Shown here piece after piece: positions 329 through 16,030 of a stretch of 17,601 nt of DNA. The stretch is from a virus. Taxonomy: Duplodnaviria > Heunggongvirae > Uroviricota > Caudoviricetes. The position numbers and the translations under genes are program-made. The stretch lies in the IMG/VR virus record IMGVR_UViG_2695420739_000021, one strand, 5' to 3'. Position 1 is the stretch's first letter; each line of letters starts with the position of its first letter. The notes beneath the pieces were generated by a model. It saw only the letters and a program-made list of their open reading frames with translations, searched no databases and was not told the origin of the DNA.

Positions 329-342
329 GGGATTTTTGGTCC

Positions 343-375
343 ACGAGAGTAGTTTAATTGAGTATGTAACTACAT
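343..375. other. Candidate att core region (attL side), with inverted repeat GTAGTT / AACTAC
   Basis: Identity between the two unit starts begins at 342/9051. Inverted repeat 349-354 / 368-373 resembles core-type integrase half-sites. Exact crossover cannot be fixed without attB. Confidence 0.3.
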
Positions 376-410
376 GATTTTAAATAGTATGCTTGATTCA
401 ACTTTTAAAC

Positions 411-434
411 CGTATAACTAAACGTATAACTAAA
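411..434. repeat. Tandem 12-bp direct repeats CGTATAACTAAA x2 (putative integrase arm-type sites, P' arm)
   Basis: Perfect tandem copies at 411-422 and 423-434; same motif occurs four times upstream of int (8858-8912). Confidence 0.45.
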
Positions 435-660
435 ATCATTTGCTGAAAAAGTGTACAATTTAAATGCGAGTTTTCCTGTGGTAAAAGCTCCAACCGTAAC
501 GATGTTCGTTATGGTTGCCTTGATGGTCTGCGTGGTCATTATGACCATTCAGGATTTGAAGGGTGACGCTTCCGACTTCCTCAAATTGAGGTTTCCGAAA
601 ATATCAGCGGGTTAGCGATTAATCTGACCATTAATTAAACTGCGAAAATTTCGTAATTAT

Positions 661-686
661 CCCGATATGGGGATCACCATATCGGG
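661..686 (-). terminator. Hairpin downstream of capsid-like gene (putative operon terminator)
   Basis: Perfect 10-bp inverted repeat CCCGATATGG / CCATATCGGG with 6-nt spacer, just 3' of the gene ending at 703; followed by AU-rich rather than a clean U-tract. Confidence 0.35.
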
Positions 687-702
687 ATTGATGCCGGAAA
701 AA

Positions 703-1629
703 TCAGCTTTTCGCCAGAACGGTGACGGCCTTATCGAGTTTTTGCCATCCGCAATAGGTGATTGCCCTGAACGCTGTAGCGTCATTCTGGAAAAGGCTAA
801 CCGTCCCTGATTCGGTTTTTATTACCGCCTCATCAGTTGGGGTTATAACCGTGGCTTCAACGTTAATAATCAGCTTTTGAGCGTCTATCAGCATCATGCG
901 ATCCGCCTGTTCGCTCACAATTACCGGTATTCTCAAAAGCTCTATCTGCCAGAACTCAGCATCAGTAAGCTGTAAGGCGTTTTCTACGGGCAAGATTAGC
1001 GACGACGTGGCAAGCGTGTTACCGTTCGCTATGTGCTTTTTGAAAAGCTCTATGAAGTTTTCGGCCTCATCAGCACCATTAAGCACGCCCTCAGGGGATA
1101 CGCCCGCCACCTCCTGGTCACTGGAAAGAAATTTTTTATCTATTTCTTTCACCGATTCCGATGTGATCAAGTCTCTGATCGCTGAATTGGTACCAGGGGT
1201 GCTAAATTTGATTAGCTCGTTATTCAGCATCACAATAGCGCCAAGTTTGCACAGTTTTAGCGCACTTTCGTTTACTTCTCCCTCTTTGACAGGGATTTCT
1301 TCGGCTTCTTTAAGCCATTTACTACCCTTGCCTGATATTGACTGCAATTTTGCGCCAAACGGAAGATTCAGCGCGCTGCTGATTAGCTTGCCTGGTACAG
1401 ACTGCGAAAAAATATACTCGCCAAGCTCTCTTACTATCGGCTCTGCCACCAGCGACGGCATATTATCCGTAGTCATTCCGGCAACAATGGATTTTTCAAG
1501 AAATTTCGATACTGCCGGATCATTTTTTTTCGTCATTTCAATTGCGTCTGCATGGCTGAATTTACACGATGTAAGCACGCTGGCGGCGCGAACTGCCGAC
1601 ACGCCTTTCATGTTTTTAGAAATCATCAT
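703..1629 (-). CDS. HK97-fold major capsid protein-like (308 aa, no delta/scaffold domain)
   Basis: ATGATG start with AGGAGG about 8 nt upstream. Segment KLGAIVMLNNELIKF...EVAGVSPEGVLNGA resembles the conserved HK97-family capsid motif. Last gene of the terS operon. Assignment is from memory, not a search. Confidence 0.5.
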   Translation of the reverse strand: MMISKNMKGVSAVRAASVLTSCKFSHADAIEMTKKNDPAVSKFLEKSIVAGMTTDNMPSLVAEPIVRELGEYIFSQSVPGKLISSALNLPFGAKLQSISGKGSKWLKEAEEIPVKEGEVNESALKLCKLGAIVMLNNELIKFSTPGTNSAIRDLITSESVKEIDKKFLSSDQEVAGVSPEGVLNGADEAENFIELFKKHIANGNTLATSSLILPVENALQLTDAEFWQIELLRIPVIVSEQADRMMLIDAQKLIINVEATVITPTDEAVIKTESGTVSLFQNDATAFRAITYCGWQKLDKAVTVLAKS

Positions 1630-1777
1630 CTTCTTCCTCCTGGTAACATGGGGTTAGGGTTTCGTGAAAATATGGCATCAGAACAGCGGCAGCCTGTAAC
1701 CGTATTTCGGTTGGCTGCTGCTTGTCGTTCATGATTTCCGTGAGTACATCAATAGGGTCTGTGATGTATTCGCTCAT
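1616..1777 (-). CDS. Hypothetical small protein (53 aa) with acidic C-terminal tail
   Basis: ATG at 1777, 11 nt after terS stop; MSEYITDPIDVLTEIMNDKQQPTEIRLQAAAVLMPYFHETLTPCYQEEEDDDF; overlaps capsid start by 14 nt. Not in ORF track (under length cutoff). Confidence 0.35.
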   Translation of the reverse strand: MSEYITDPIDVLTEIMNDKQQPTEIRLQAAAVLMPYFHETLTPCYQEEEDDDF

Positions 1778-1788
1778 AGTTCGCTACC

Positions 1789-2277
1789 TCAGTGTTTTAA
1801 GCCAGTTGGTGGCTTAGGGATGGGGAACCGATTTGAGGAGACATTAGCGGCATTGAGTTTTTTAACCTCTTTTTTCCCAATGCTGCCGATCTTGCGGTGG
1901 GTGAACTGGGCCAGCTTAAACGCGGCATCTAAAGCCAGTTTTGGATCTGTGTCCATGTTGTCAATCAGTATCCTGCCCATTGCTTTGATGGGGTCGGGTA
2001 GGCCGTTATCCATCATCTCAATGGTGTTAATTGATGCCCGTTCCGGTGTAACTTTTTCGGTAACTTTCTTTGTAACTTTTTTCGGTTTTGTAACCTGAAA
2101 AGTTACATCAGAAGTTACAGCCTTAAGATACTTTTTCACCTCCGGATCATTGGATAGCTGCCAGCCTTTAACCCTTGCAGTCTTTTCGCTGTATCCCGCA
2201 TGTATCGCGGCTTCCGTTGGATTTGTGCCCTTTGATAACGCATCAGCAAACCGCTTTTTTTTGGTCGTTAATGCCAT
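1789..2277 (-). CDS. terS: Terminase small subunit (N-terminal HTH type)
   Basis: Internal ATG (MALTTKKKRFADALSKGTNPTEAAIHAGYSEKTARVKGWQL...) matches the TerS DNA-binding N-terminus. The track's longer 208-aa start is an unlikely N-terminal extension. Confidence 0.7.
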   Translation of the reverse strand: MALTTKKKRFADALSKGTNPTEAAIHAGYSEKTARVKGWQLSNDPEVKKYLKAVTSDVTFQVTKPKKVTKKVTEKVTPERASINTIEMMDNGLPDPIKAMGRILIDNMDTDPKLALDAAFKLAQFTHRKIGSIGKKEVKKLNAANVSSNRFPIPKPPTGLKH

Positions 2278-2323
2278 GCAAAAACCTCGTTTTGAGGGGG
2301 TGTAACTTTTCGTGTAACTTTTT
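2048..2323. repeat. Cluster of GTAAC(T)TTT repeats inside and just upstream of terS (candidate pac site)
   Basis: Direct copies at about 2048, 2060, 2072, 2090, 2302, 2313 and inverted AGTTAC at about 2101 and 2113. Two copies lie upstream of the terS start codon, so not purely a coding-repeat effect. Confidence 0.35.
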
Positions 2324-2404
2324 TGAAAAGCAAAATTTTCTATGAATGAGACTGGGGGCGGTGTCCAGGGCGATCGACTTTCCGGCCGGAACACTCCCCC
2401 CCTG

Positions 2405-2566
2405 TCATTGCTCACCGAGTAACGAGATCAGGCCTTCAACTTCATCACTCAGCTTGTTTATTCGTGTCTCAAGCTCTGCGATCTTTTCCATCAATGGCGC
2501 TATGGTGTCTCTTGTTTCCTCGCCAATGGCTTTAATGATGCTTGCCTCGCGTTCTGTGATAGCCAT
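2405..2566 (-). CDS. Hypothetical small coiled-coil protein (53 aa)
   Basis: ATG 3 nt after the stop of the preceding 64-aa gene; MAITEREASIIKAIGEETRDTIAPLMEKIAELETRINKLSDEVEGLISLLGEQ. Not in ORF track. Confidence 0.3.
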   Translation of the reverse strand: MAITEREASIIKAIGEETRDTIAPLMEKIAELETRINKLSDEVEGLISLLGEQ

Positions 2567-2569
2567 TGT

Positions 2570-2764
2570 TTACGCCTCACTTGTTGCAATGCCCAGGCGT
2601 TCGCGTAACAGTACGCGCGCAAGATGCCCTATTGTTGGTGTTGCCGCCCTGCCGTAGATACCTGATTCATTCATCCGGCGCACAATATCGAACTGCAACT
2701 TTTTAAGCTCGTTAAGGATTTCATGATCAATCATCACGGTAGCGCTTTGCTTTATCTCTTCCAC
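2570..2764 (-). CDS. Hypothetical small protein (64 aa), first gene of packaging operon; possible DNA-binding
   Basis: GTG start at 2764 with AGGAG 8 nt upstream; sits after an AT-rich promoter-like region and the terminator of the preceding unit. Confidence 0.4.
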   Translation of the reverse strand: MEEIKQSATVMIDHEILNELKKLQFDIVRRMNESGIYGRAATPTIGHLARVLLRERLGIATSEA

Positions 2765-2852
2765 TTTGTTTTCTCCTGATACTTATCATTGCATAACCAG
2801 TATTTTCGATAGATTATCATTAATTAACCATATTTGAAGATATATGAGATCG

Positions 2853-2876
2853 AAAAAAAGCCGGATTGCTCCGGCT
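2853..2876 (-). terminator. Intrinsic terminator after the 81-aa gene
   Basis: Minus-strand hairpin GCCGGAGCAATCCGGC followed by U7 (plus strand: A-run 2853-2859, hairpin 2860-2875). Confidence 0.6.
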
Positions 2877-2894
2877 ATGTGCTCACTTCTTCGG

Positions 2895-3140
2895 TTATTC
2901 TCCAGCGCTTTTAACGTTGATGGTTGTTACCTGTTCCGCTTCGGCAATCTCCCGTTCTGTCAGCGTGGCAAAGTTTGCCGCCGCTGTGGTCATGAATGCG
3001 CTTATCAGTTCGGGATGCTCCTTCGCGTATCCTTCCCCCGCGTGGCGGTCTATCGTTCTGATTGCCACCTTTAAGGAAAGCTCTGTCATGTCTAACGCTT
3101 TATATTTTGGCGCTGTCTTATCTCTGGTTTTTCTGTTCAT
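2895..3140 (-). CDS. Hypothetical protein (81 aa), origin-adjacent
   Basis: ATG at 3140 directly abutting the iteron array; followed by the intrinsic terminator. Confidence 0.35.
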   Translation of the reverse strand: MNRKTRDKTAPKYKALDMTELSLKVAIRTIDRHAGEGYAKEHPELISAFMTTAAANFATLTEREIAEAEQVTTINVKSAGE

Positions 3141-3345
3141 TCCCCACTACTCCCCACTTTTGCTCCCCACTTTTTGAAATTACCCACCGTCTCCCCACCT
3201 CTTTTTTTTGTGATTCTAACGTTATGTTTTTCAATATGTTTTTTACTCCCCACTTTTTTGGGTATATACAGGTGGGAAAGTGGGTAATTATGTTTCAATT
3301 TTGTTAAATTCCCCACTCCCCCCACTTTTACTCCCCACTTTTTAC
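3141..3345. repeat. Replication origin candidate: iterons (C)TCCCCACTTTT plus AT-rich segment
   Basis: At least 8 direct copies (3141, 3150, 3163, 3191, 3245, 3310, 3319, 3331), 2 inverted (GTGGGAAAGTGGGTA at 3272-3286), and AT-rich stretch 3201-3245. Directly 3' of the rep gene. Confidence 0.6.
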
Positions 3346-4675
3346 AGCGGGCGCACGTCATCACCGTCAATAACGATTACGCCATCATTTTCCAGCTTGT
3401 ACAGCCAGCGCCGGAAGTGCTTCATCTCATACCCCAGCTTTTTCATATCGTCGCGGAGAAGGGCGATAGTGCACGCCTCCCCGTGTGCTGTTCGTGTTCT
3501 GATGCACTGCCATAGCGCGGCGTGATTCTCCGTCTTGTTCCCTGCCTCCTCGATGCGCTCCAGTTCAACGGGAGGGCGCGGCTTATCCACCACCACCAGC
3601 GACGTGATTAACTCCCCGTCAGCGTCGGTAAAAAGCTCCACCACGCGTAAGTCATATGCTGCTTCTTTGAGTTCCTCCGCGTCCTTCATTTTGGTACATG
3701 AGATAACCAGCGCTTCGCTGCCTGCGTCCTCCCTGCGTATCCGGTATTCGGCGTCCAGTGATGCACGAAATGCACTGGAACCACGCGCCCCCTTTGTTTC
3801 ATCCTTGCCGGAATGGTGAACCACCAGCACCGTTGCCCCTGTGCGCCGTTTCAGTTCGTCACACCCACGGATAAACGCCCCCATATCACGGGAATCATTT
3901 TCATCATTGCCGCCAAAGCAGCGCGCCAGCGTATCCAGAATAATCATTCGAACCGGTTTACCCGTTTCCCGTTCCACCTGACGGGCAGCGATAACCATTT
4001 CACGTGCACAACCTCCCAGGCTTTTACACGACGCGGAACACCTATACCGCCTTCACCAACCACATAGAGAACCGCACCATGTGCAACCCTGCGGCCTCCC
4101 CACTGGCGACCAGTGGCAACATGGCACGCCCACGATCCGGCAAGGAATGATTTATAGGACCCGCTAGCCCCGTATATGCTGCATAGCGATACCGCCGGAA
4201 TAATCCCCTTAACCACGTAATCCAGTTGCGTGTCGTATCCGGTAGATCCAACGCTCATCGGTAGCGTGGTTTTTCGCTGGTGGTTTTTTTCTTCCGCCGG
4301 CTCTTTCCCGCGCACCCGTTCCAGGTATTCGCGCCAGTTCTCCCGCATATGGCTGTGCATCCCTTCGGGGTAATAATTCGCATCAGTTACACCCGCCGCC
4401 GCCAGCTTGTGCGCAATGGCATTAATATTTGATGGCCTGATGTGGCCTGCCTTGTACAGCCGGACACAATAGCGCCCCTCGTCGATGATTCTCAGGTCTG
4501 CCAGTTCATCCAGTTGATCATCAGCCAGCACAACGGGAGGCACATTATCGCCAGCCAGTCGCCCGTCCTGTTCCTGCCACTGTTTCGCATGTGCCCAGGC
4601 ATCACTACCCGCAAAAATAATGACTTCGGTCATCTTGTCGTAAGGCTGTTTTTTTAAGTTCGGTGCGCTTTTCAT
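3342..4675 (-). pseudogene. Disrupted replication protein (AAA_25/RepA-like), split by 67-bp deletion
   Basis: Copy 2 has one 466-aa ORF; copy 1 is split into 3944..4675 (N-terminal, Walker A GASGSYKSF, frameshifted tail) and 3342..3998 (C-terminal, Walker B MIILD). Deletion at about 3999-4001. Confidence 0.7.
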
Positions 4676-4971
4676 TTCTTGCCCCTGAATCCGTTAATCA
4701 TGGTTTTCAGCTTCTGGATGTTTGCCCGTGCCCTGGCGTTGCTGGTGGGCACGTTATGCGGCGCGGTCTGTACCAGAGAAAAATCACGCCGGAACTGATA
4801 AACAGGCATCACGCAATCATATTCGTAACCTTCACGGCGGTAAGTTACGCACCGTCCCGCCACGCCCTTAATCATTACCGTGCCGCCGTACTGGTCGCGG
4901 TAAATATCACCGCGCGTAAATTTAGGGTGAGTGTTGCCACTGGCAGTTAAGCCAGAATATTTAAGTTTCAT
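4672..4971 (-). CDS. Hypothetical protein (99 aa), translationally coupled to rep
   Basis: ATG at 4971 with GGAG upstream; stop overlaps rep start (ATGA). Confidence 0.4.
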   Translation of the reverse strand: MKLKYSGLTASGNTHPKFTRGDIYRDQYGGTVMIKGVAGRCVTYRREGYEYDCVMPVYQFRRDFSLVQTAPHNVPTSNARARANIQKLKTMINGFRGKK

Positions 4972-4976
4972 TATTT

Positions 4977-5210
4977 TTATTCTCCGGTGTGCTGTTCGTT
5001 ATATCTGTCGTGCAATGTCTCTATTTCCTGCAACTCATTTATTACAGGCTCAAGAAGCGTTATTAATGCCGTGACAATTCTTGATTTTTGTTTGTCGCGT
5101 TCATTGTCGCCAAGTGTTTCAAGCCATATGCGCAATATTTCGTACATACCTTCAGCGTAAGCAAGGGCACTAAATGCGCGGTCTATTGTTTCGTGGTAAA
5201 TATCACGCAT
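4977..5210 (-). CDS. Small acidic helical protein (77 aa)
   Basis: ATG at 5210; net negative charge; overlaps stop of the upstream gene (TAATATG). Confidence 0.4.
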   Translation of the reverse strand: MRDIYHETIDRAFSALAYAEGMYEILRIWLETLGDNERDKQKSRIVTALITLLEPVINELQEIETLHDRYNEQHTGE

Positions 5211-5211
5211 A

Positions 5212-5433
5212 TTAATCCCCGTCCGTTGTTTTTCTTAAAACAGCTTCTGTCACGAAATCAGCATAGTTAGCGGCAATATCAAGAATATTTAGCCCTGTAT
5301 CTCTGTGCTCATCAGTGCAAAGAAAGAAAAAAGCCACCCGCATAATTTCAGATATTGACGAAAGCGCATCAGCCGCATCATCAGGAACGCCGGAAAATTC
5401 TTGTTTCAGGGAATTAAAACGATCATCACGCAT
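5212..5433 (-). CDS. Small acidic protein (73 aa), paralog of the next gene (PDDAADAL motif)
   Basis: Start MRDDRF with a G8 run as ribosome-binding site; overlaps the upstream gene (ATGCGTGA). Confidence 0.4.
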   Translation of the reverse strand: MRDDRFNSLKQEFSGVPDDAADALSSISEIMRVAFFFLCTDEHRDTGLNILDIAANYADFVTEAVLRKTTDGD

Positions 5434-5647
5434 AACCCCCCCCATTTTCACAATCAGCAACAAGAATATTTTTAGCGTCATTCAGCGACCGCGTTGCGAT
5501 GTATCGGATACATTCCAGGGCGAACTGTGTCCGGTCTTTCTGTTCTTCTCCCTGCGCAAGCTCTGCAGTGCATTCAATATCGATAAGCGCGTGCATCAGC
5601 GTAGTGAGCGCGTCGGCTGCTGCGTCCGGTGTGGTTTTATTGCACAT
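5426..5647 (-). CDS. Small acidic protein (73 aa), paralog (TPDAAADAL motif)
   Basis: Start MCNKTT with AGGAGG 7 nt upstream; overlaps the Icd-like stop. Confidence 0.4.
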   Translation of the reverse strand: MCNKTTPDAAADALTTLMHALIDIECTAELAQGEEQKDRTQFALECIRYIATRSLNDAKNILVADCENGGGYA

Positions 5648-6197
5648 GGCACACCTCCTGACGAATACGGGCGGCGAATACAGCAACACAACCGGACGGG
5701 CAACGGCTACGCGCTTCGCGTTCCGTCCAGGCGGTTACGTGGATGATTTGATGTTCTGACGCGCCAAAGATGATAAAGCGCCAGAGAAAGGCGGTTTGAG
5801 AATGTACAAGGGTAGGGATAGTAGCCATGTTGGCAGCCTCCTCAGTGTGGTTAAGATAACCGCCACCGGAAACGCCAATTTCGCTGGTGGCGGACTGTAC
5901 AGGGTTGGCGTAACCGGACACTGAAGAAACCGGCGCGGATTGCTCCGCCCCCGTACAGCCCACCATTGATAAGGTGTGACTATGCGGCACAAAAAAACAC
6001 GCGGGGCGCGTGTTATGCGCTTCAGTTTTGCCCAGGACGCCAATCCCGGCACCCGTTTTATGAGGTGCGCGGGAATCATAGCTATTTTCGACACTGGCGA
6101 TCAACTGGTTTTTTTCTCCGATATTCAGGGCCAGAAAACGCCACACAAAGGCCGTTTGTGTGTGTACAAGGTGTGGTATATGATTTACGGCAACCAT
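5637..6197 (-). CDS. Icd-like (Ash-family) protein, tandem two-domain reading frame; internal start at 5828 gives a 63-aa Icd-like product
   Basis: Two paralogous segments share HLVH(T/S)QTAF(V/L)WRF; distal one ends ...TEREARSR...VFAARIRQEV, like P4-type Icd-like proteins. No stop between them. GAGGAGG precedes the internal ATG at 5828; GGAG precedes ATG at 6197. Confidence 0.45.
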   Translation of the reverse strand: MVAVNHIPHLVHTQTAFVWRFLALNIGEKNQLIASVENSYDSRAPHKTGAGIGVLGKTEAHNTRPACFFVPHSHTLSMVGCTGAEQSAPVSSVSGYANPVQSATSEIGVSGGGYLNHTEEAANMATIPTLVHSQTAFLWRFIIFGASEHQIIHVTAWTEREARSRCPSGCVAVFAARIRQEVCHVQ

Positions 6198-6285
6198 AAC
6201 GGCTCCTAGTTTACGTTGTTGGTTAGACGCCCCGTATGTGTTCCCAGCACTGCGGGGCGTTGATTTTTGTGTAATGGCAAGTACA

Positions 6286-6329
6286 ATGGTAATTACCATG
6301 TAGGTATAGTAATGAAGGGTAATTACCAT
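6286..6329. promoter_or_regulatory. Paired palindromic operators in divergent promoter region
   Basis: Perfect 14-bp palindrome ATGGTAATTACCAT (6286-6299) and 12-bp GGTAATTACCAT (6318-6329), centres 30 bp apart; second overlaps the RHH start codon. Possible TATAGT -10 at 6305-6310. Confidence 0.5.
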
Positions 6330-6501
6330 GTCAACACCATTAGAAAAACGTTCGCCTCCATACCAAATGCGATTACCGGAAGACTTCAGAGCGCAGCTAG
6401 AAGAAGCAGCTAAGGCCGATGGCGACACATCTTTAGCCACTTGGATTAAACGCGTTCTCCGCAAAGAATTACAGCAACGCGGCATAGAACCCAAAGGATA
6501 A
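6328..6501 (+). CDS. Ribbon-helix-helix (Arc/CopG-like) DNA-binding protein, 57 aa; putative element repressor
   Basis: MSTPLEKRSPPYQMRLPEDFRAQLEEAAKADGDTSLATWIKRVLRKELQQRGIEPKG fits the Arc-type RHH pattern. Divergent from the Icd/rep operon. Not in ORF track. Confidence 0.5.
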   Translation: MSTPLEKRSPPYQMRLPEDFRAQLEEAAKADGDTSLATWIKRVLRKELQQRGIEPKG

Positions 6502-6543
6502 AAACTATCAGCGCCGTGGTGTGAGGTATTACGGCGCATTGCT

Positions 6544-6732
6544 ATGCAGGACAACACAATGACCGATAAAGAATTGACCAAAACATTATCACCGGCACGG
6601 AAAAGACGGCGCAGAAAGATAGAGCATGAATCAGAAAGATTCGCGCCATGTGCTTTTGCCCTTGAGCAATTCCTTAAAGAGTACAGGGAAAAGCGCTCAT
6701 TGCAGGTATGGCAACGAACTGAACCAGACTGA
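6544..6732 (+). CDS. Hypothetical basic small protein (62 aa)
   Basis: ORF between RHH gene and the plus-strand terminator; weak ribosome-binding site; arginine-rich stretch KRRRRK. Confidence 0.25.
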   Translation: MQDNTMTDKELTKTLSPARKRRRRKIEHESERFAPCAFALEQFLKEYREKRSLQVWQRTEPD

Positions 6733-6827
6733 TTGCATTGCCCACCAGCCTGATAGCGGCTATCATCCCCGTGCTTATGTTTGGGATCACATACACATAA
6801 GGCGCAGCGGGTTAATTGTTCAGAAAG

Positions 6828-6854
6828 GCGGCTCCATATCGGGGCCGCTTTTTT
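6828..6854 (+). terminator. Intrinsic terminator at convergence of RHH unit and alpA
   Basis: Stem GCGGCTCC / GGGGCCGC (one G-U pair), 5-nt loop, then T6. Confidence 0.55.
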
Positions 6855-6880
6855 CGTGTTTGTCATATCTGTGATACCCG

Positions 6881-7087
6881 TTAAGCAGCCGTTCCGCGTG
6901 CTTCCTCTTCGCGTTCTTTCTGCCAGGACAACACATCATCCTCATACCATCCGCGACGGCGTAAACCAACGCGAAAACCCTGCGGAAATTCTCCGGCGTT
7001 GATCATGCTTTGCAGCGTGCTGTCTGCCTTGATGTGGATAATTTTTTTTACTTCCTGGCGAAAGATAATTTTTCTGATTGCTTCCAT
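6881..7087 (-). CDS. alpA: AlpA-family regulator / excisionase-like protein (68 aa)
   Basis: ...STLQSMINAGEFPQGFRVGLRRRGWYEDDVLSWQ matches the AlpA-family HTH pattern. Confidence 0.75.
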   Translation of the reverse strand: MEAIRKIIFRQEVKKIIHIKADSTLQSMINAGEFPQGFRVGLRRRGWYEDDVLSWQKEREEEARGTAA

Positions 7088-7103
7088 CGTGATTTACCTT
7101 GTG

Positions 7104-7191
7104 AATCCGGTGTATTCCGGTGACAAATACGGTAAATCATCGGATATGGGTAAAAACAGTTCCCACCGTTTTTAAACGGTATACACCGTTT
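7104..7191. promoter_or_regulatory. alpA upstream control region: TCCGGTG repeats and ACCGTTT/AAACGGT inverted repeats
   Basis: ATCCGGTG (7104-7111) and TTCCGGTGA (7114-7122) spaced 10 bp; inverted repeats at 7165-7180 and 7174-7191. The TCCGGTG motif recurs next to the att core. Confidence 0.35.
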
Positions 7192-7220
7192 TTTATATTG
7201 ATGATTTGAAATGGAATTAT

Positions 7221-7243
7221 AAAAAAAGCGGCATTTCTGCCGC
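7221..7243 (-). terminator. Intrinsic terminator of the int / 83-aa unit
   Basis: Minus-strand hairpin GCGGCAGAAATGCCGC followed by U7. Confidence 0.6.
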
Positions 7244-7254
7244 TTCCAGGATTG

Positions 7255-7506
7255 TTACCGCCATTTTTTGGGCCTGCCTCCGATCTTCATAGATGCCGGA
7301 CGTACGACCTTATCAATACTTACCGCCAGATTTCTGGAAGCGCCACGGGATACCAGAAAATCTACTACCTGTTTTTTTGATGGGGCCGTCGTTCTGTCCT
7401 CCGGATCGTAGGTTGACCAAAATTCATGCTGAACCATCAGGGCCAGTTGCAGCCCGTCGCAATTGCATCTGATATTTTTTTGCATCTTAACGGTTTCATG
7501 TTTCAC
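7255..7506 (-). CDS. Hypothetical int-linked small protein (83 aa)
   Basis: ORF downstream of int on the same strand, before the terminator; GTG start at 7506 (alternative ATG at M8); TATAAT motif about 28 nt upstream. Confidence 0.4.
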   Translation of the reverse strand: MKHETVKMQKNIRCNCDGLQLALMVQHEFWSTYDPEDRTTAPSKKQVVDFLVSRGASRNLAVSIDKVVRPASMKIGGRPKKWR

Positions 7507-7583
7507 GGCCTTGTCGTTAAATTTGATGCAATTATACGACGGTTTTACATGGTTTTCGTAGTTTTTACTGGTTTTCTGTACAG

Positions 7584-8825
7584 CTACACGGCTCGGATAC
7601 CCCTTTTACCACTGGCGAGGGTTACGCCCGTCGCCGCAGCCTCGACAAATTCGCCCCACCAGCGCATCAGCACGATGCGTTTTTCTATGTAGTTGCTCCG
7701 GTTGTATGCCCGTCTAACTTCGTTGGTGTCGACGTGGGCAAGTGCCGCCTCTATTACGTCCGGCTCGAATCCTTCCTCGTTCGCTGCTGTGCTGAATATG
7801 GCGCGTAATCCATGAGACACCAGCACGCCAGCGAATCCCATACGCCGCAATGCTGCGTTAGCTGTCTGGCTGTTCATCGGCTGCTGTGGGTCTTTCAGAC
7901 TTGGGAAAACGTAATTGCGGTGGTGGCTGATTGGTTTCATGGCCTCCAGCACCGCCATAGCCTGACCGGAAAGCGGGATAACGTGATCCCTGCGCATCTT
8001 CATGCGTCCGGCAGGTATCGTCCATTGCTTCGCGTCCAGGTTGATTTCATCCCACCGCGTTGATGACGCTTCGGCGGGACGGGTTACGGTCAGTAACTGC
8101 CATTCAATCAGTAATCTGGTCTGCCGTTCTGTTGCCGATACTGATAAAGCCTGCATAAGCTCGGGCAGCTGTTCGGGGCGGATTGTTGGCATATGTTTTT
8201 TTACAGGTGAGGGAAACGCCTTACGCACATTCATAGCCGGATTGGCATCAATCAGCCCACTGTTGGCGGCGTAATCCATTACCTCATTAACGCGCTGTAA
8301 AACCCGCTTGAGTGTTTCCAGGTTGCCGCGCTCCTTGATGGGGGTAAGCACTTCAACGAACCTTCGGGCGGTGAGGGTATCTATTGGCGTGTTGCCGATG
8401 AACGGGAATACATATTTATCCAGCGAACGCCAGATGTCTTTAATCGTGTTGGGGGCCAGATTCTGGCTGATTTTCACCTGGTACCATGCCGCCGCCACAT
8501 TTTCGAACGTGTTCCCTTGTCTTCGGGCCTCTGTCTCTCTTTTTTGCCTCTCGTGGTCCTGCGGGTCAGTTCCGGCACTGATTAACGTCCTGTACTCGCT
8601 ACGGCGTTTTCTGGCATCAGCCAGGGAAACATCTTCAAGCGATCCAAAACTCAGCAATATTCTTTTTTTGTCCGATGGTCGGTAGTAGGAAAATCTCCAG
8701 AGTTTTGATCCAGACGGTTTGACCAGGAGAAAAAGCCCTCCGCCGTCCTGCAGGGTGTACTCCTTTTGCGCTGGTCTGGCTGCTTTGATCTGCACTGTGG
8801 TTAATGGGTGTGTTTTTCTCGCCAT
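7584..8825 (-). CDS. int: Tyrosine integrase, P4-type (413 aa)
   Basis: N-terminus MARKTHPLTTVQIKAARPAQKEYTLQDGGGLFLLVKPSGSKLWRFSYY is typical of P4-like integrases; ATG at 8825 preferred over the upstream GTG. Confidence 0.85.
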   Translation of the reverse strand: MARKTHPLTTVQIKAARPAQKEYTLQDGGGLFLLVKPSGSKLWRFSYYRPSDKKRILLSFGSLEDVSLADARKRRSEYRTLISAGTDPQDHERQKRETEARRQGNTFENVAAAWYQVKISQNLAPNTIKDIWRSLDKYVFPFIGNTPIDTLTARRFVEVLTPIKERGNLETLKRVLQRVNEVMDYAANSGLIDANPAMNVRKAFPSPVKKHMPTIRPEQLPELMQALSVSATERQTRLLIEWQLLTVTRPAEASSTRWDEINLDAKQWTIPAGRMKMRRDHVIPLSGQAMAVLEAMKPISHHRNYVFPSLKDPQQPMNSQTANAALRRMGFAGVLVSHGLRAIFSTAANEEGFEPDVIEAALAHVDTNEVRRAYNRSNYIEKRIVLMRWWGEFVEAAATGVTLASGKRGIRAV

Positions 8826-8857
8826 ATGTCTATGATTCCACACGAAAAAACAGGGTT

Positions 8858-8912
8858 TTAGTTATACGGCTTTAGTTATACGCCAGCCCGTATAACTAAA
8901 CGTATAACTAAA
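8858..8912. repeat. Four copies of CGTATAACTAAA (two inverted, two direct): putative arm-type sites, P arm
   Basis: TTTAGTTATACG at about 8858 and 8871; CGTATAACTAAA at about 8890 and 8901. Same motif as 411-434. Confidence 0.45.
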
Positions 8913-8923
8913 AAATCCGGCTG

Positions 8924-9037
8924 ATAGCTTATAAATCCGGTGATGTTCGGTGACTAAAAAACATAAAAAAACCCGCCAATCAAGTGATTAGCGGGTTATC
9001 CCTGTCTTATCCGGTGCTTTCCGGTGATATCCGGTGG
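8924..9037. repeat. TCCGGTG direct repeats, three phased at 10 bp, next to att core (candidate directionality-factor sites)
   Basis: Copies at about 8924 (variant), 8935, 8946 (variant), 9009, 9019, 9029; the last three are exactly 10 bp apart. Confidence 0.4.
8962..8997 (-). terminator. Intrinsic terminator between the copy-2 capsid operon and int
   Basis: Minus-strand stem AACCCGC / GCGGGTT with 14-nt loop followed by U7. Confidence 0.5.
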
Positions 9038-9119
9038 GCGATTTGGTCGGCACGAGAGTAGTTTAATTGAGTATGTAACTACATGATTTTAAATAGTATG
9101 CTTGATTCAACTTTTAAAC

Positions 9120-9143
9120 CGTATAACTAAACGTATAACTAAA
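9120..9143. repeat. Tandem CGTATAACTAAA x2 (P' arm of junction attP)
   Basis: Copy-2 equivalent of 411-434; with 8858-9037 and the core near 9051 this forms a full attP-like site. Confidence 0.45.
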
Positions 9144-9411
9144 ATCATTTGCTGAAAAAGTGTACAATTTAAATGCGAGTTTTCCTGTGGTAAAAGCTCC
9201 AACCGTAACGATGTTCGTTATGGTTGCCTTGATGGTCTGCGTGGTCATTATGACCATTCAGGATTTGAAGGGTGACGCTTCCGACTTCCTCAAATTGAGG
9301 TTTCCGAAAATATCAGCGGGTTAGCGATTAATCTGACCATTAATTAAACTGCGAAAATTTCGTAATTATCCCGATATGGGGATCACCATATCGGGATTGA
9401 TGCCGGAAAAA

Positions 9412-11849: not shown

Positions 11850-12054
11850 TCCCCACTACTCCCCACTTTTGCTCCCCACTTTTTGAAATTACCCACCGTC
11901 TCCCCACCTCTTTTTTTTGTGATTCTAACGTTATGTTTTTCAATATGTTTTTTACTCCCCACTTTTTTGGGTATATACAGGTGGGAAAGTGGGTAATTAT
12001 GTTTCAATTTTGTTAAATTCCCCACTCCCCCCACTTTTACTCCCCACTTTTTAC
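11850..12054. repeat. Replication origin iterons (copy 2)
   Basis: Same TCCCCACTTTT iteron array as 3141..3345. Confidence 0.6.
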
Positions 12055-13451
12055 AGCGGGCGCACGTCATCACCGTCAATAACGATTACGCCATCATTTT
12101 CCAGCTTGTACAGCCAGCGCCGGAAGTGCTTCATCTCATACCCCAGCTTTTTCATATCGTCGCGGAGAAGGGCGATAGTGCACGCCTCCCCGTGTGCTGT
12201 TCGTGTTCTGATGCACTGCCATAGCGCGGCGTGATTCTCCGTCTTGTTCCCTGCCTCCTCGATGCGCTCCAGTTCAACGGGAGGGCGCGGCTTATCCACC
12301 ACCACCAGCGACGTGATTAACTCCCCGTCAGCGTCGGTAAAAAGCTCCACCACGCGTAAGTCATATGCTGCTTCTTTGAGTTCCTCCGCGTCCTTCATTT
12401 TGGTACATGAGATAACCAGCGCTTCGCTGCCTGCGTCCTCCCTGCGTATCCGGTATTCGGCGTCCAGTGATGCACGAAATGCACTGGAACCACGCGCCCC
12501 CTTTGTTTCATCCTTGCCGGAATGGTGAACCACCAGCACCGTTGCCCCTGTGCGCCGTTTCAGTTCGTCACACCCACGGATAAACGCCCCCATATCACGG
12601 GAATCATTTTCATCATTGCCGCCAAAGCAGCGCGCCAGCGTATCCAGAATAATCATTCGAACCGGTTTACCCGTTTCCCGTTCCACCTGACGGGCAGCGA
12701 TAACCATTTCCTCAACATCAAGCGGGGCAGCCGGAAAGATGGGACGGTTTACCAGATACAGATTTTTCACCTGCTCACCGTGCACAACCTCCCAGGCTTT
12801 TACACGACGCGGAACGCCGATACCGCCTTCACCAACCACATAGAGAACAGCGCCATGCGCCACCCTGCGGCCTCCCCACTGGCGGCCCGTGGAAACGTGA
12901 CACGCCCACGAACCCGCAAGGAACGATTTATATGAACCGCTCGCCCCGTATATGCTGCACAGCGATACCGCCGGAATAATCCCCTTAACCACGTAATCAA
13001 GTTGTGTGTCGTATCCGGCAGATCCCACGCTCATTGGTAGCGTGGTTTTTCGCTGGTGGTGTTTTTCTTCCCCTGGCTTTTTCCCCCGCTCCCGTTCCAG
13101 ATATTCGCGCCAGTTCTCCCGCTTCTGGCTGTGCATCCCTTCGGGGTAATAATTCGCATCAGTTACACCCGCCGCCGCCAGCTTGTGCGCAATGGCATTA
13201 ATATTTGATGGCCTGATGTGGCCTGCCTTGTACAGCCGGACACAATAGCGCCCCTCGTCGATGATTCTCAGGTCTGCCAGTTCATCCAGTTGATCATCAG
13301 CCAGCACAACGGGAGGCACATTATCGCCAGCCAGTCGCCCGTCCTGTTCCTGCCACTGTTTCGCATGTGCCCAGGCATCACTACCCGCAAAAATAATGAC
13401 TTCGGTCATCTTGTCGTAAGGCTGTTTTTTTAAGTTCGGTGCGCTTTTCAT
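12051..13451 (-). CDS. Replication protein, AAA_25/RepA-DnaB-like ATPase with C-terminal winged-helix region (466 aa, intact)
   Basis: Single ORF with Walker A (GASGSYKSF), Walker B (VRMIILDTLARCFGG), VLVVHHSGKDETKGARGSSA motif and basic C-terminal region; ATG at 13451; origin immediately 3'. Confidence 0.75.
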   Translation of the reverse strand: MKSAPNLKKQPYDKMTEVIIFAGSDAWAHAKQWQEQDGRLAGDNVPPVVLADDQLDELADLRIIDEGRYCVRLYKAGHIRPSNINAIAHKLAAAGVTDANYYPEGMHSQKRENWREYLERERGKKPGEEKHHQRKTTLPMSVGSAGYDTQLDYVVKGIIPAVSLCSIYGASGSYKSFLAGSWACHVSTGRQWGGRRVAHGAVLYVVGEGGIGVPRRVKAWEVVHGEQVKNLYLVNRPIFPAAPLDVEEMVIAARQVERETGKPVRMIILDTLARCFGGNDENDSRDMGAFIRGCDELKRRTGATVLVVHHSGKDETKGARGSSAFRASLDAEYRIRREDAGSEALVISCTKMKDAEELKEAAYDLRVVELFTDADGELITSLVVVDKPRPPVELERIEEAGNKTENHAALWQCIRTRTAHGEACTIALLRDDMKKLGYEMKHFRRWLYKLENDGVIVIDGDDVRPL

Positions 13452-14423: not shown

Positions 14424-14973
14424 GGCACACCTCCTGACGAATACGGGCGGCGAATACAGCAACACAACCGGACGGGCAACGGCTACGCGCTTCGCGTTCC
14501 GTCCAGGCGGTTACGTGGATGATTTGATGTTCTGACGCGCCAAAGATGATAAAGCGCCAGAGAAAGGCGGTTTGAGAATGTACAAGGGTAGGGATAGTAG
14601 CCATGTTGGCAGCCTCCTCAGTGTGGTTAAGATAACCGCCACCGGAAACGCCAATTTCGCTGGTGGCGGACTGTACAGGGTTGGCGTAACCGGACACTGA
14701 AGAAACCGGCGCGGATTGCTCCGCCCCCGTACAGCCCACCATTGATAAGGTGTGACTATGCGGCACAAAAAAACACGCGGGGCGCGTGTTATGCGCTTCA
14801 GTTTTGCCCAGGACGCCAATCCCGGCACCCGTTTTATGAGGTGCGCGGGAATCATAGCTATTTTCGACACTGGCGATCAACTGGTTTTTTTCTCCGATAT
14901 TCAGGGCCAGAAAACGCCACACAAAGGCCGTTTGTGTGTGTACAAGGTGTGGTATATGATTTACGGCAACCAT
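14413..14973 (-). CDS. Icd-like (Ash-family) tandem two-domain protein (copy 2)
   Basis: Copy of 5637..6197; internal start at 14604. Confidence 0.45.
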   Translation of the reverse strand: MVAVNHIPHLVHTQTAFVWRFLALNIGEKNQLIASVENSYDSRAPHKTGAGIGVLGKTEAHNTRPACFFVPHSHTLSMVGCTGAEQSAPVSSVSGYANPVQSATSEIGVSGGGYLNHTEEAANMATIPTLVHSQTAFLWRFIIFGASEHQIIHVTAWTEREARSRCPSGCVAVFAARIRQEVCHVQ

Positions 14974-15656: not shown

Positions 15657-15863
15657 TTAAGCAGCCGTTCCGCGTGCTTCCTCTTCGCGTTCTTTCTGCC
15701 AGGACAACACATCATCCTCATACCATCCGCGACGGCGTAAACCAACGCGAAAACCCTGCGGAAATTCTCCGGCGTTGATCATGCTTTGCAGCGTGCTGTC
15801 TGCCTTGATGTGGATAATTTTTTTTACTTCCTGGCGAAAGATAATTTTTCTGATTGCTTCCAT
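15657..15863 (-). CDS. alpA: AlpA-family regulator (copy 2)
   Basis: Identical translation to 6881..7087. Confidence 0.75.
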   Translation of the reverse strand: MEAIRKIIFRQEVKKIIHIKADSTLQSMINAGEFPQGFRVGLRRRGWYEDDVLSWQKEREEEARGTAA

Positions 15864-16030
15864 CGTGATTTACCTTGTGAATCCGGTGTATTCCGGTGAC
15901 AAATACGGTAAATCATCGGATATGGGTAAAAACAGTTCCCACCGTTTTTAAACGGTATACACCGTTTTTTATATTGATGATTTGAAATGGAATTATAAAA
16001 AAAGCGGCATTTCTGCCGCTTCCAGGATTG

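Follow-up and report, generated by a model that had tools for sequence, protein, structure and literature searches.

Gene content and integration site of the satellite element

The analysed window, by which we mean the whole stretch of 17,601 nucleotides, begins with chromosomal DNA carrying a fragment of yejO (bases 1 to about 335) and continues with two tandem copies of an 8.7-kb element, the first at positions 342-9050 and the second from 9051 to the window end. Both copies share an identity of 99.3-99.9% and are distinguished by 33 substitutions and one 67-bp indel, the 67 bp of copy 2 (12710-12775) being missing from copy 1 (at about 3998-4003). This indel breaks the gene of a RepA-type AAA_25 helicase in copy 1 into the ORFs 3342-3998 and 3944-4675, while the gene is whole in copy 2 (12051-13451, 466 aa). 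Replication is probably defective in one of the two copies.

All genes of the element are encoded on the minus strand. The int gene (7584-8825) is predicted to encode a P4-type tyrosine integrase of 413 aa, counted from the ATG at 8825, with an Arm-DNA-bind_3 domain. The alpA gene (6881-7087; 15657-15863 in copy 2) encodes a winged-helix protein of 68 aa, which is proposed below to bind the boxes described here, and a small ORF without assigned function lies between int and alpA. Further genes comprise the Ash/Icd region and those predicted to encode a DUF4222 protein, the AAA_25 RepA-type helicase, the small terminase subunit TerS and a capsid-like protein.

We assign the element to the PICI-type satellites; it occupies the 3' end of tRNA-Pro (proL). 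As criterion for a PICI we used a size of about 8-15 kb, a unidirectional gene arrangement and an integration site that is not used by prophages. The window element measures 8.7 kb and is encoded on one strand in the order int, alpA, immunity zone, replication and late/packaging genes, which matches the four-zone gene plan of Gram-negative PICIs (PMC10111431). In complete E. coli genomes the same element is located between yejO and tRNA-Pro(GGG)/yejM, and 280 of the 5,426 complete E. coli genomes contain a place that covers 80% or more of the alpA-int-att query. Its carriers include Shiga-toxin-producing lineages (O103, O111) and the probiotic strain Nissle 1917.

A mechanically called ORF of 409 aa (5637-6866), which RefSeq splits into Icd-like and Ash pseudogenes, was found to contain two Rfam matches on the minus strand, one to the C4 antisense RNA (5883-5970; 77.6 bits, E = 2.7e-14; about 14659-14746 in copy 2) and one to isrK (5992-6068; 66 bits; about 14768-14844 in copy 2). 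The satellite appears to encode an immunity RNA module of the P1/P4 type.

The attachment junction of the tandem pair

The region 8844-9160 represents the attP-like junction of the tandem pair, composed of P arm, core and P' arm. The preliminary description had referred to this region as attP; it is indeed attP-like, but it constitutes the internal junction of two tandem integrated copies and not a free circle. As one piece this junction was detected in none of the 5,426 complete E. coli genomes, its two halves occurring separately in 291 of them, and tandem occupancy of proL by the satellite is rare. Since the two copies are not identical, the junction reflects a real tandem and not an artefact of circular assembly.

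The att core (9044-9058) reads TGGTCGGCACGAGAG on the plus strand and was identified, from integrated copies in complete genomes, as the reverse complement of the tRNA-Pro(GGG) 3' end, which bears out the core that had been put forward at this place; on the minus strand it reads CTCTCGTGCCGACCA, the last 15 nt of tRNA-Pro(GGG). The segment common to all three junctions is CACGAGAG (9051-9058). At the left junction (window 330-350) the tRNA-Pro 3' end is present as TGGTC-CACGAGAG; compared with the intact core (9044-9058) it shows a gap of 2 nt. This displaced tRNA fragment is imperfect and is adjoined by a chromosomal terminator-like hairpin (300-326).

On both arms the junction carries a doubled motif, CGTATAACTAAA, which is absent upstream of alpA. 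On the P arm (8857-8912) it forms an inverted pair (8857-8882) and a direct pair (8889-8912). On the P' arm it is found as a doubled copy at 9120-9143 on the plus strand, and the same pair recurs at the left end of copy 1 (411-434). These doubled motifs are regarded below as putative arm-type sites of the integrase.

The element furthermore supplies an intrinsic terminator for tRNA-Pro (8960-8997, minus strand), consisting of a 12-bp stem (8970-8997) and a T-run, which is located between two triplets of phased boxes. Hairpin and T-run are found at the same place in all relatives. Within the hairpin, and hence between the box triplets, AATCAAGTGATTA (8968-8980) fits the IHF core consensus WATCAANNNNTTR. 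It was considered as an IHF site and set aside; a similar match occurs in type B and is absent from the other relatives.

Read in gene sense, the junction thus comprises the tRNA-Pro 3' end, 7 nt, three CACCGGA boxes (S6-S4), the terminator, the boxes S3-S1 (CACCGAA, CACCGGA, one empty slot, AGCCGGA), four copies of CGTATAACTAAA and int.

Phased TCCGGTG boxes at the attachment site and upstream of alpA

The core-proximal array S4-S6 (9010-9036, plus strand) consists of exact TCCGGTG copies at 9010, 9020 and 9030. On the gene-sense minus strand these appear as three CACCGGA copies starting 7 nt after the CCA end of tRNA-Pro, and the box nearest the core ends 7 bp from it. The preliminary description had reported three copies beside the core at an exact 10-bp spacing. 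Both the spacing and the position next to the core hold, while the starts it gave (9009, 9019 and 9029) are right only if the preceding W is counted.

More copies had been claimed upstream of this triple and were found as the arm-proximal array S1-S3 (8916-8952, plus strand), which is placed between the putative Int arm-type sites and the terminator. It contains one exact copy at 8936 and two degenerate copies in phase with it, TTCGGTG at 8946 (one mismatch) and TCCGGCT at 8916 (two mismatches), so that the spacings amount to 20 and 10 bp. The att-side boxes are limited to 8916-9036, which places them exclusively on one arm, in the interval from the putative Int arm-type sites to the core. Phased boxes are missing from the native tRNA-Pro trailer, now found at the left junction (about 300-343), and the boxes therefore belong to the element.

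The same motif in the same orientation is present 18-35 nt before alpA. This alpA-proximal pair (7106-7122, plus strand; TCCGGTG at 7106 and 7116) reads CACCGGAATACACCGGA in gene sense and ends 18 nt upstream of the alpA ATG; its counterpart in tandem copy 2 is located at 15882-15898 (TCCGGTG at 15882 and 15892, plus strand). Two copies 10 bp apart had been noticed here before, with the span given as 7104-7122 in place of the actual starts. A weak third box, TACGGTA (7128-7134, plus strand; sense ACCGTAT), lies on the alpA side as well.

Exact TCCGGTG occurs 16 times in the window compared with 1.99 expected occurrences, the maximum in 200 shuffles being six. Neither a triple of one 7-mer at 10-bp spacing nor at least three phased pairs of one 7-mer were obtained in any of 1000 dinucleotide-preserving shuffles of one element copy. 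Tandem Repeats Finder reported the region 9008-9036 as a repeat of period 10 with 2.9 copies and the consensus TATCCGGTGA. The box consensus in the window element is WWTCCGGTGA with the core CCGG.

Isolated TCCGGTG copies at 2042, 4983, 5625 and 5864 are located inside genes, have no phased partner and look incidental. The copy at 5864 adjoins the 3' end of the C4 RNA match within a GC-rich inverted repeat. A scan of viral contigs for CACCGGANNNCACCGGA returned matches that, among those listed, were mostly in unrelated contigs, as chance predicts for 14 specified bases.

The upstream region of alpA

In gene sense the region 5' of alpA comprises a terminator (7247-7224), two palindromes, the weak box, the pair CACCGGAATACACCGGA, 18 nt and the ATG, which is preceded by a Shine-Dalgarno sequence. 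The boxes at this place had been described as lying at the alpA promoter. They do lie upstream of alpA, but no sigma-70 promoter was detected there and their position is better given as 18-35 nt before the start codon. The scan for sigma-70 promoters of both alpA and int on the coding strand detected none, and hexamers picked by hand were unconvincing. Repression is what one would more typically expect from a site that immediately precedes the ribosome-binding site and has no detected promoter on its downstream side.

The palindromes form two tandem 20-bp units (7153-7194; imperfect palindromes AAACGGT-N4-ACCGTTT) upstream of the alpA-proximal boxes. Types A and B both retain them, and L018 and L027 have each lost one unit. 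Their half-site CACCGT resembles the CACCGG box. These palindromes may serve as operator of a dimeric regulator, perhaps in response to a helper-phage signal, and are the better candidate than the boxes for the site of an activator or of such a signal.

Type C differs in this region from types A and B in that it has a good sigma-70-like alpA promoter (TTGACT-N17/18-TATGCT or TATTCT), which types A and B are lacking. Other repeats were also detected between int and alpA in type C (L009, 3700-3760 and 3800-3870; L006, 2400-2480), namely four copies of the 11-bp GGAGCCAATTT and three copies of the approximately 22-bp CATTATTTAAAGTNAGAAG.

Conservation of the boxes across relatives

For comparison we used relatives that occupy the same place in the chromosome (types A, B and C of E. 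coli, E. albertii and, for the alpA side only, 50 IMG/VR loci) and relatives reached via AlpA homologues (Klebsiella, two of Salmonella, a Dickeya-like metagenome contig, Pectobacterium, Pantoea, Edwardsiella and two more of E. coli). A profile scan of genome contigs with the AlpA alignment yielded a single locus, in E. albertii. Since most of the IMG/VR relatives start at the int start codon and do not include the att region, the att comparisons rest on the complete genomes and the contigs with AlpA homologues.

Apart from Edwardsiella, in which the stretch examined contains no tRNA, and from the IMG/VR loci starting at int, the relatives show tRNA-Pro followed by three slots, the terminator hairpin, three further slots, the doubled motif, int, (ORF) and alpA in this order. 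Phased boxes occupy the same slots, at att as well as before alpA, in Escherichia, Klebsiella, Salmonella, Dickeya, Pectobacterium, Pantoea and Edwardsiella. Absence of the repeats from relatives sharing the int/alpA pair had been named in the preliminary description as refuting its proposal; the phased boxes turned out to be kept at both places across these seven genera.

The alpA-proximal pair is kept in the 50 IMG/VR loci and across genera, and the arm-proximal boxes are phased by 20/10 or 10/10 in types B and C and in the other genera. At all three places the relatives keep a CCGG/TCGG/ACGG core in an exact 10-bp register. Examples are ATTCTGGATG, TATCGGATAC and ATACGGAAAC for the core-proximal boxes, ATCGGTTA, TGACCGTTTA and CAGCCGGA for the arm-proximal boxes and CGCCGGAATT and AACCGGTATT for those before alpA. 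In the pooled self-identity only lag 10 peaks in the three regions (z = 6.2, 6.6 and 6.2 with 13, 12 and 10 loci), whereby the z-scores overstate independence as the loci share descent, although the flanking DNA of several loci has diverged too far to be aligned. The number of boxes varies by whole 10-bp units, L003 having two core-proximal and L034 three alpA-proximal boxes. In L034 (IMG/VR 2703718821_000013, about 1690-1730) three CACCGGAATA units precede alpA, which corresponds to the exact gain of one 10-bp unit.

Int and AlpA are the only proteins common to all loci. The AlpA of type C is 59-62% identical and differs in its recognition helix (DSTLTEMVNKG vs DSTLQSMINAG). In the same slots type C has the boxes CATCGTT/CGACGGT/AGCCGTT, and an A(C/T)CGT(T/C)A box replaces the CCGG pair near alpA. 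In Klebsiella, TCTG and ACGGAA variants are found both at att and before alpA. Types A and B have the alpA-proximal motif in common and differ in their att boxes. The box sequence thus appears to track the AlpA allele in part, a covariation which is suggestive and not clean because the boxes of the relatives are degenerate and keep little beyond the CCGG/ACGG/TCGG core. Such degeneracy is usual for sites of recombination directionality factors (RDFs; PMC7498355).

The AlpA protein

The 68-aa AlpA of the window consists of a winged helix-turn-helix and one C-terminal helix only. Its match to the Pfam family Phage_AlpA (PF05930) scores 17.9 bits (E = 0.0028), which is below the gathering threshold of 21 bits, and its match to the PHROG family "excisionase and transcriptional regulator" has a value of 2.5e-6. 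Homologues sharing 56-78% identity carry a precomputed PF05930 match and are called AlpA family by their sources. The structure model of the window protein is a winged helix, and its best structural match is a solved excisionase. Furthermore, the family profile matches PDB 8c3t ("AlpA family phage regulatory protein"; E = 6e-4). This protein, the GIsul2 excisionase, is 21% identical to the window AlpA and belongs to a different kind of mobile element.

The name AlpA is also borne by a Q-like antiterminator of P. aeruginosa, which has a C-terminal HTH reading a short DNA element in common with the window protein. However, P. aeruginosa AlpA is much larger, with the HTH at residues 128-142 as opposed to a total of 68 aa, its N-terminal segment rings the RNA exit channel, and it reads a single GGGACG between -35 and -10, an element followed by a sigma-dependent pause (PMC9371919, PMC7969949). 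A Q-like antitermination by the window AlpA at the terminators 8970-8997 and 7224-7247 was considered and rejected, since the protein is far too small and its putative sites are phased repeats in multiple copies.

AlpA as candidate recombination directionality factor and autoregulator

Phased repeats of the kind found here had been read as an RDF-type layout. In keeping with this, the boxes are arranged head-to-tail, one helical turn apart and on one arm only, as described for RDF sites (PMC7498355), and a small winged-helix protein is encoded beside int. The best explanation for the TCCGGTG boxes is that they are operators of the satellite's own 68-aa AlpA. By elimination and from the comparison of sequences and structures, AlpA is the leading candidate; it probably binds the boxes and acts as RDF and autoregulator.

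According to this proposal AlpA would be made once a helper phage switches alpA on. Its monomers would load cooperatively on S1-S6, one per helical turn, and would thereby bend the P arm. This would bring Int on the doubled motifs within reach of the core and allow its arm- and core-bound domains to assemble the excisive complex. AlpA on the alpA-proximal pair would feed back on its own transcription. The arm-proximal triplet is located where an int promoter would be, and AlpA may also modulate int.

The loading and bending steps are inferred by analogy with lambda Xis, P4 Vis, 186 Apl, KplE1 TorI and RdfS. RDFs are known to bind head-to-tail, one per turn and cooperatively and to bend the arm (PMC7498355), and for several RDFs, namely Apl, Cox, Vis, TorI and RdfS, binding to a promoter has been described as well, often to their own or to that of int (PMC7498355, PMC11963761). 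The dual role of AlpA-family proteins as excisionase and regulator, to which the preliminary description had appealed, agrees with published work on related PICIs. Deletion of alpA abolishes excision or transfer of EcCICFT073 and EcCIMP1, and PICI AlpA acts on its own promoter, for which positive autoregulation has been reported (PMC6092414, PMC11773190).

Several findings count against AlpA as ligand of the boxes. The reported activation fits poorly with the position of the pair, which immediately precedes the ribosome-binding site with no promoter detected on its downstream side. The AlpA of EcCICFT073 did not alter int expression (PMC6092414), and the att-side and alpA-side repeats of EcCICFT073 are in opposite orientation. 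The Pfam score is below the cut-off, and types A and B share the alpA-proximal motif but differ from each other in their att boxes.

Alternative ligands and functions of the boxes

A factor other than AlpA might bind the boxes, either a host protein conserved among enterobacteria, such as an OmpR-class response regulator or a nucleoid protein reading direct repeats of 10 bp, or an inducer that is encoded by the helper phage and acts at att as well as at alpA. A phage factor is responsible for the induction of alpA transcription by helper phages (PMC6092414), the boxes are kept across seven genera as a host-factor site would be, and AlpA itself was assigned to them by elimination. This explanation seems unlikely, since the box sequences differ among same-site elements within one host species (types A, B and C) and EcCICFT073 uses the box ACAAC; different box words within one host species point to a partner encoded by the element. 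The palindromes at 7153-7194 are, moreover, better candidates for the site of an external activator or repressor. We know of no host consensus that is matched by the boxes.

The integrase was considered as the second protein common to all loci. In this case the TCCGGTG boxes would be the arm-type sites of the Int N-terminal domain, which must have such sites somewhere given its Arm-DNA-bind_3 domain, and the doubled CGTATAACTAAA would be the AlpA site. A study of HE-PICIs left undecided whether Int or AlpA binds the doubled motif (PMC10111431). Pairs of relatives with similar AlpA and divergent Int N-termini allow a distinction. L124 and L122, whose Int N-terminal domains are 55% identical, have the doubled motifs GGCATAC and GTTATAC, respectively, whereas their AlpA proteins are 94% identical and their boxes similar. 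Likewise, L127 and L121 share 57% identity in the Int N-termini and 83% in AlpA, and their doubled motifs are GGGACTA and AGCTATAC, respectively.

The doubled motif therefore switches with the arm-binding domain of Int, which identifies the doubled 12-mer, i.e. CGTATAACTAAA in the window, as the predicted Int arm-type site. The phased boxes do not follow the Int sequence, and on the same comparison the integrase would be excluded as their binder. The exchanged assignment is very unlikely also because the doubled motif is present on both arms and absent before alpA and because a function for Int arm sites in front of alpA is not apparent. For the present clade the comparison appears to settle the assignment left undecided for the HE-PICIs. 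Two families of PICI attP repeats can now be told apart on this basis, with the doubled 12-mers presumably assigned to the arm domain of Int and the phased 10-mers to the RDF.

The boxes could also be mainly transcriptional, the array gating the read-through from tRNA-Pro into int and forming a roadblock before alpA, with an effect on excision that is only indirect. S4-S6 are indeed situated between the tRNA 3' end and the terminator and S1-S3 just after it, and int has no detectable promoter of its own. For ICEKp1 and other tRNA-integrated elements, int transcription has been described as starting at the tRNA promoter and passing an attenuating stem-loop (PMC13023037). However, the 68-aa AlpA has no counterpart of the segment with which the P. 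aeruginosa antiterminator surrounds the RNA exit channel (PMC9371919), and the phased geometry on one arm beside the core is what recombination needs. We regard a mainly transcriptional function as highly improbable, whereby the two roles are not exclusive.

Returning to AlpA as the RDF that binds the boxes, its array, split by the tRNA-Pro terminator, might in addition set the tRNA-driven read-through into int. The only visible transcription path into int leads from the tRNA-Pro promoter through S4-S6, the terminator, S1-S3 and the arm sites, and the array is split into two triplets by the terminator in every relative. This additional function is quite doubtful. If it applied, AlpA would form a filament wrapping this segment, and induction by the helper phage, the supply of integrase and excision would be linked through a single nucleoprotein switch, an RDF-gated satellite version of the state-dependent switching of the int promoter in ICEKp1 (PMC13023037).

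That the repeats result from functionless replication slippage of a 10-bp unit, as the variation in copy number by whole units (three boxes in L034, two in L003) might suggest, is hardly credible given that the spacers differ (TAT, AAG, TAA) while the boxes are kept, that positions and phase persist where the flanking DNA has fully diverged and that the motif recurs 1.9 kb away.

Comparison with known systems

[quoted passage not shown] No published operator for any PICI AlpA was found in the searchable literature, and the box therefore represents new information on a known kind of system. With respect to the protein, the HE-PICI study says only that AlpA relatives are known as excisionases (PMC10111431). 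The definition of a box at attP and before alpA makes both the target of AlpA and its role as excisionase directly testable. Since the element is common in E. coli, knowledge of its excision switch has some practical value.

P4 Vis resembles the window AlpA in being a small AlpA-type protein of a satellite that has a P4-type integrase and integrates at the 3' end of a tRNA. Its targets are att, with sites that overlap the integrase promoter, and a promoter region (PMC7498355, PMC6092414), and it acts as excisionase and as regulator of the late promoter; the AlpA alleles of PICIs are only remotely related to it in sequence (PMC6092414). P4 differs from the window element in its integration site (leuX vs proL), its architecture (P4 vs PICI) and the sequence of the boxes.

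The dual-purpose RDFs 186 Apl and P2 Cox are remote from the window AlpA in sequence. They have their second sites between the face-to-face promoters for lysis and lysogeny of a phage, whereas in the window element, a satellite, these are found before the gene of the putative RDF itself. RdfS of ICEMlSymR7A possesses an extra N-terminal oligomerisation helix, and for its sites no consensus motif is definable, in contrast to the sharply defined boxes of the window element.

The AlpA proteins of EcCICFT073 and EcCIMP1 belong to the same element class and, like the window alpA, are encoded just downstream of int. Both elements differ from that of the window in AlpA allele, integrase and integration site. 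The AlpA allele and the integrase of EcCICFT073 are unrelated to those of the window element, and its box is ACAAC. In EcCICFT073 (L131, E. coli CFT073; 27781-27912 and 29188-29483) arrays of ACAAC/GACACAA with a period of 10 were detected after int and before alpA, and four TTGT boxes 10 bp apart are located upstream of int beside a doubled 12-mer, GGTGTAGTTAAT. Judged from its repeats, EcCICFT073 would follow the same design as the window element, written in different words.
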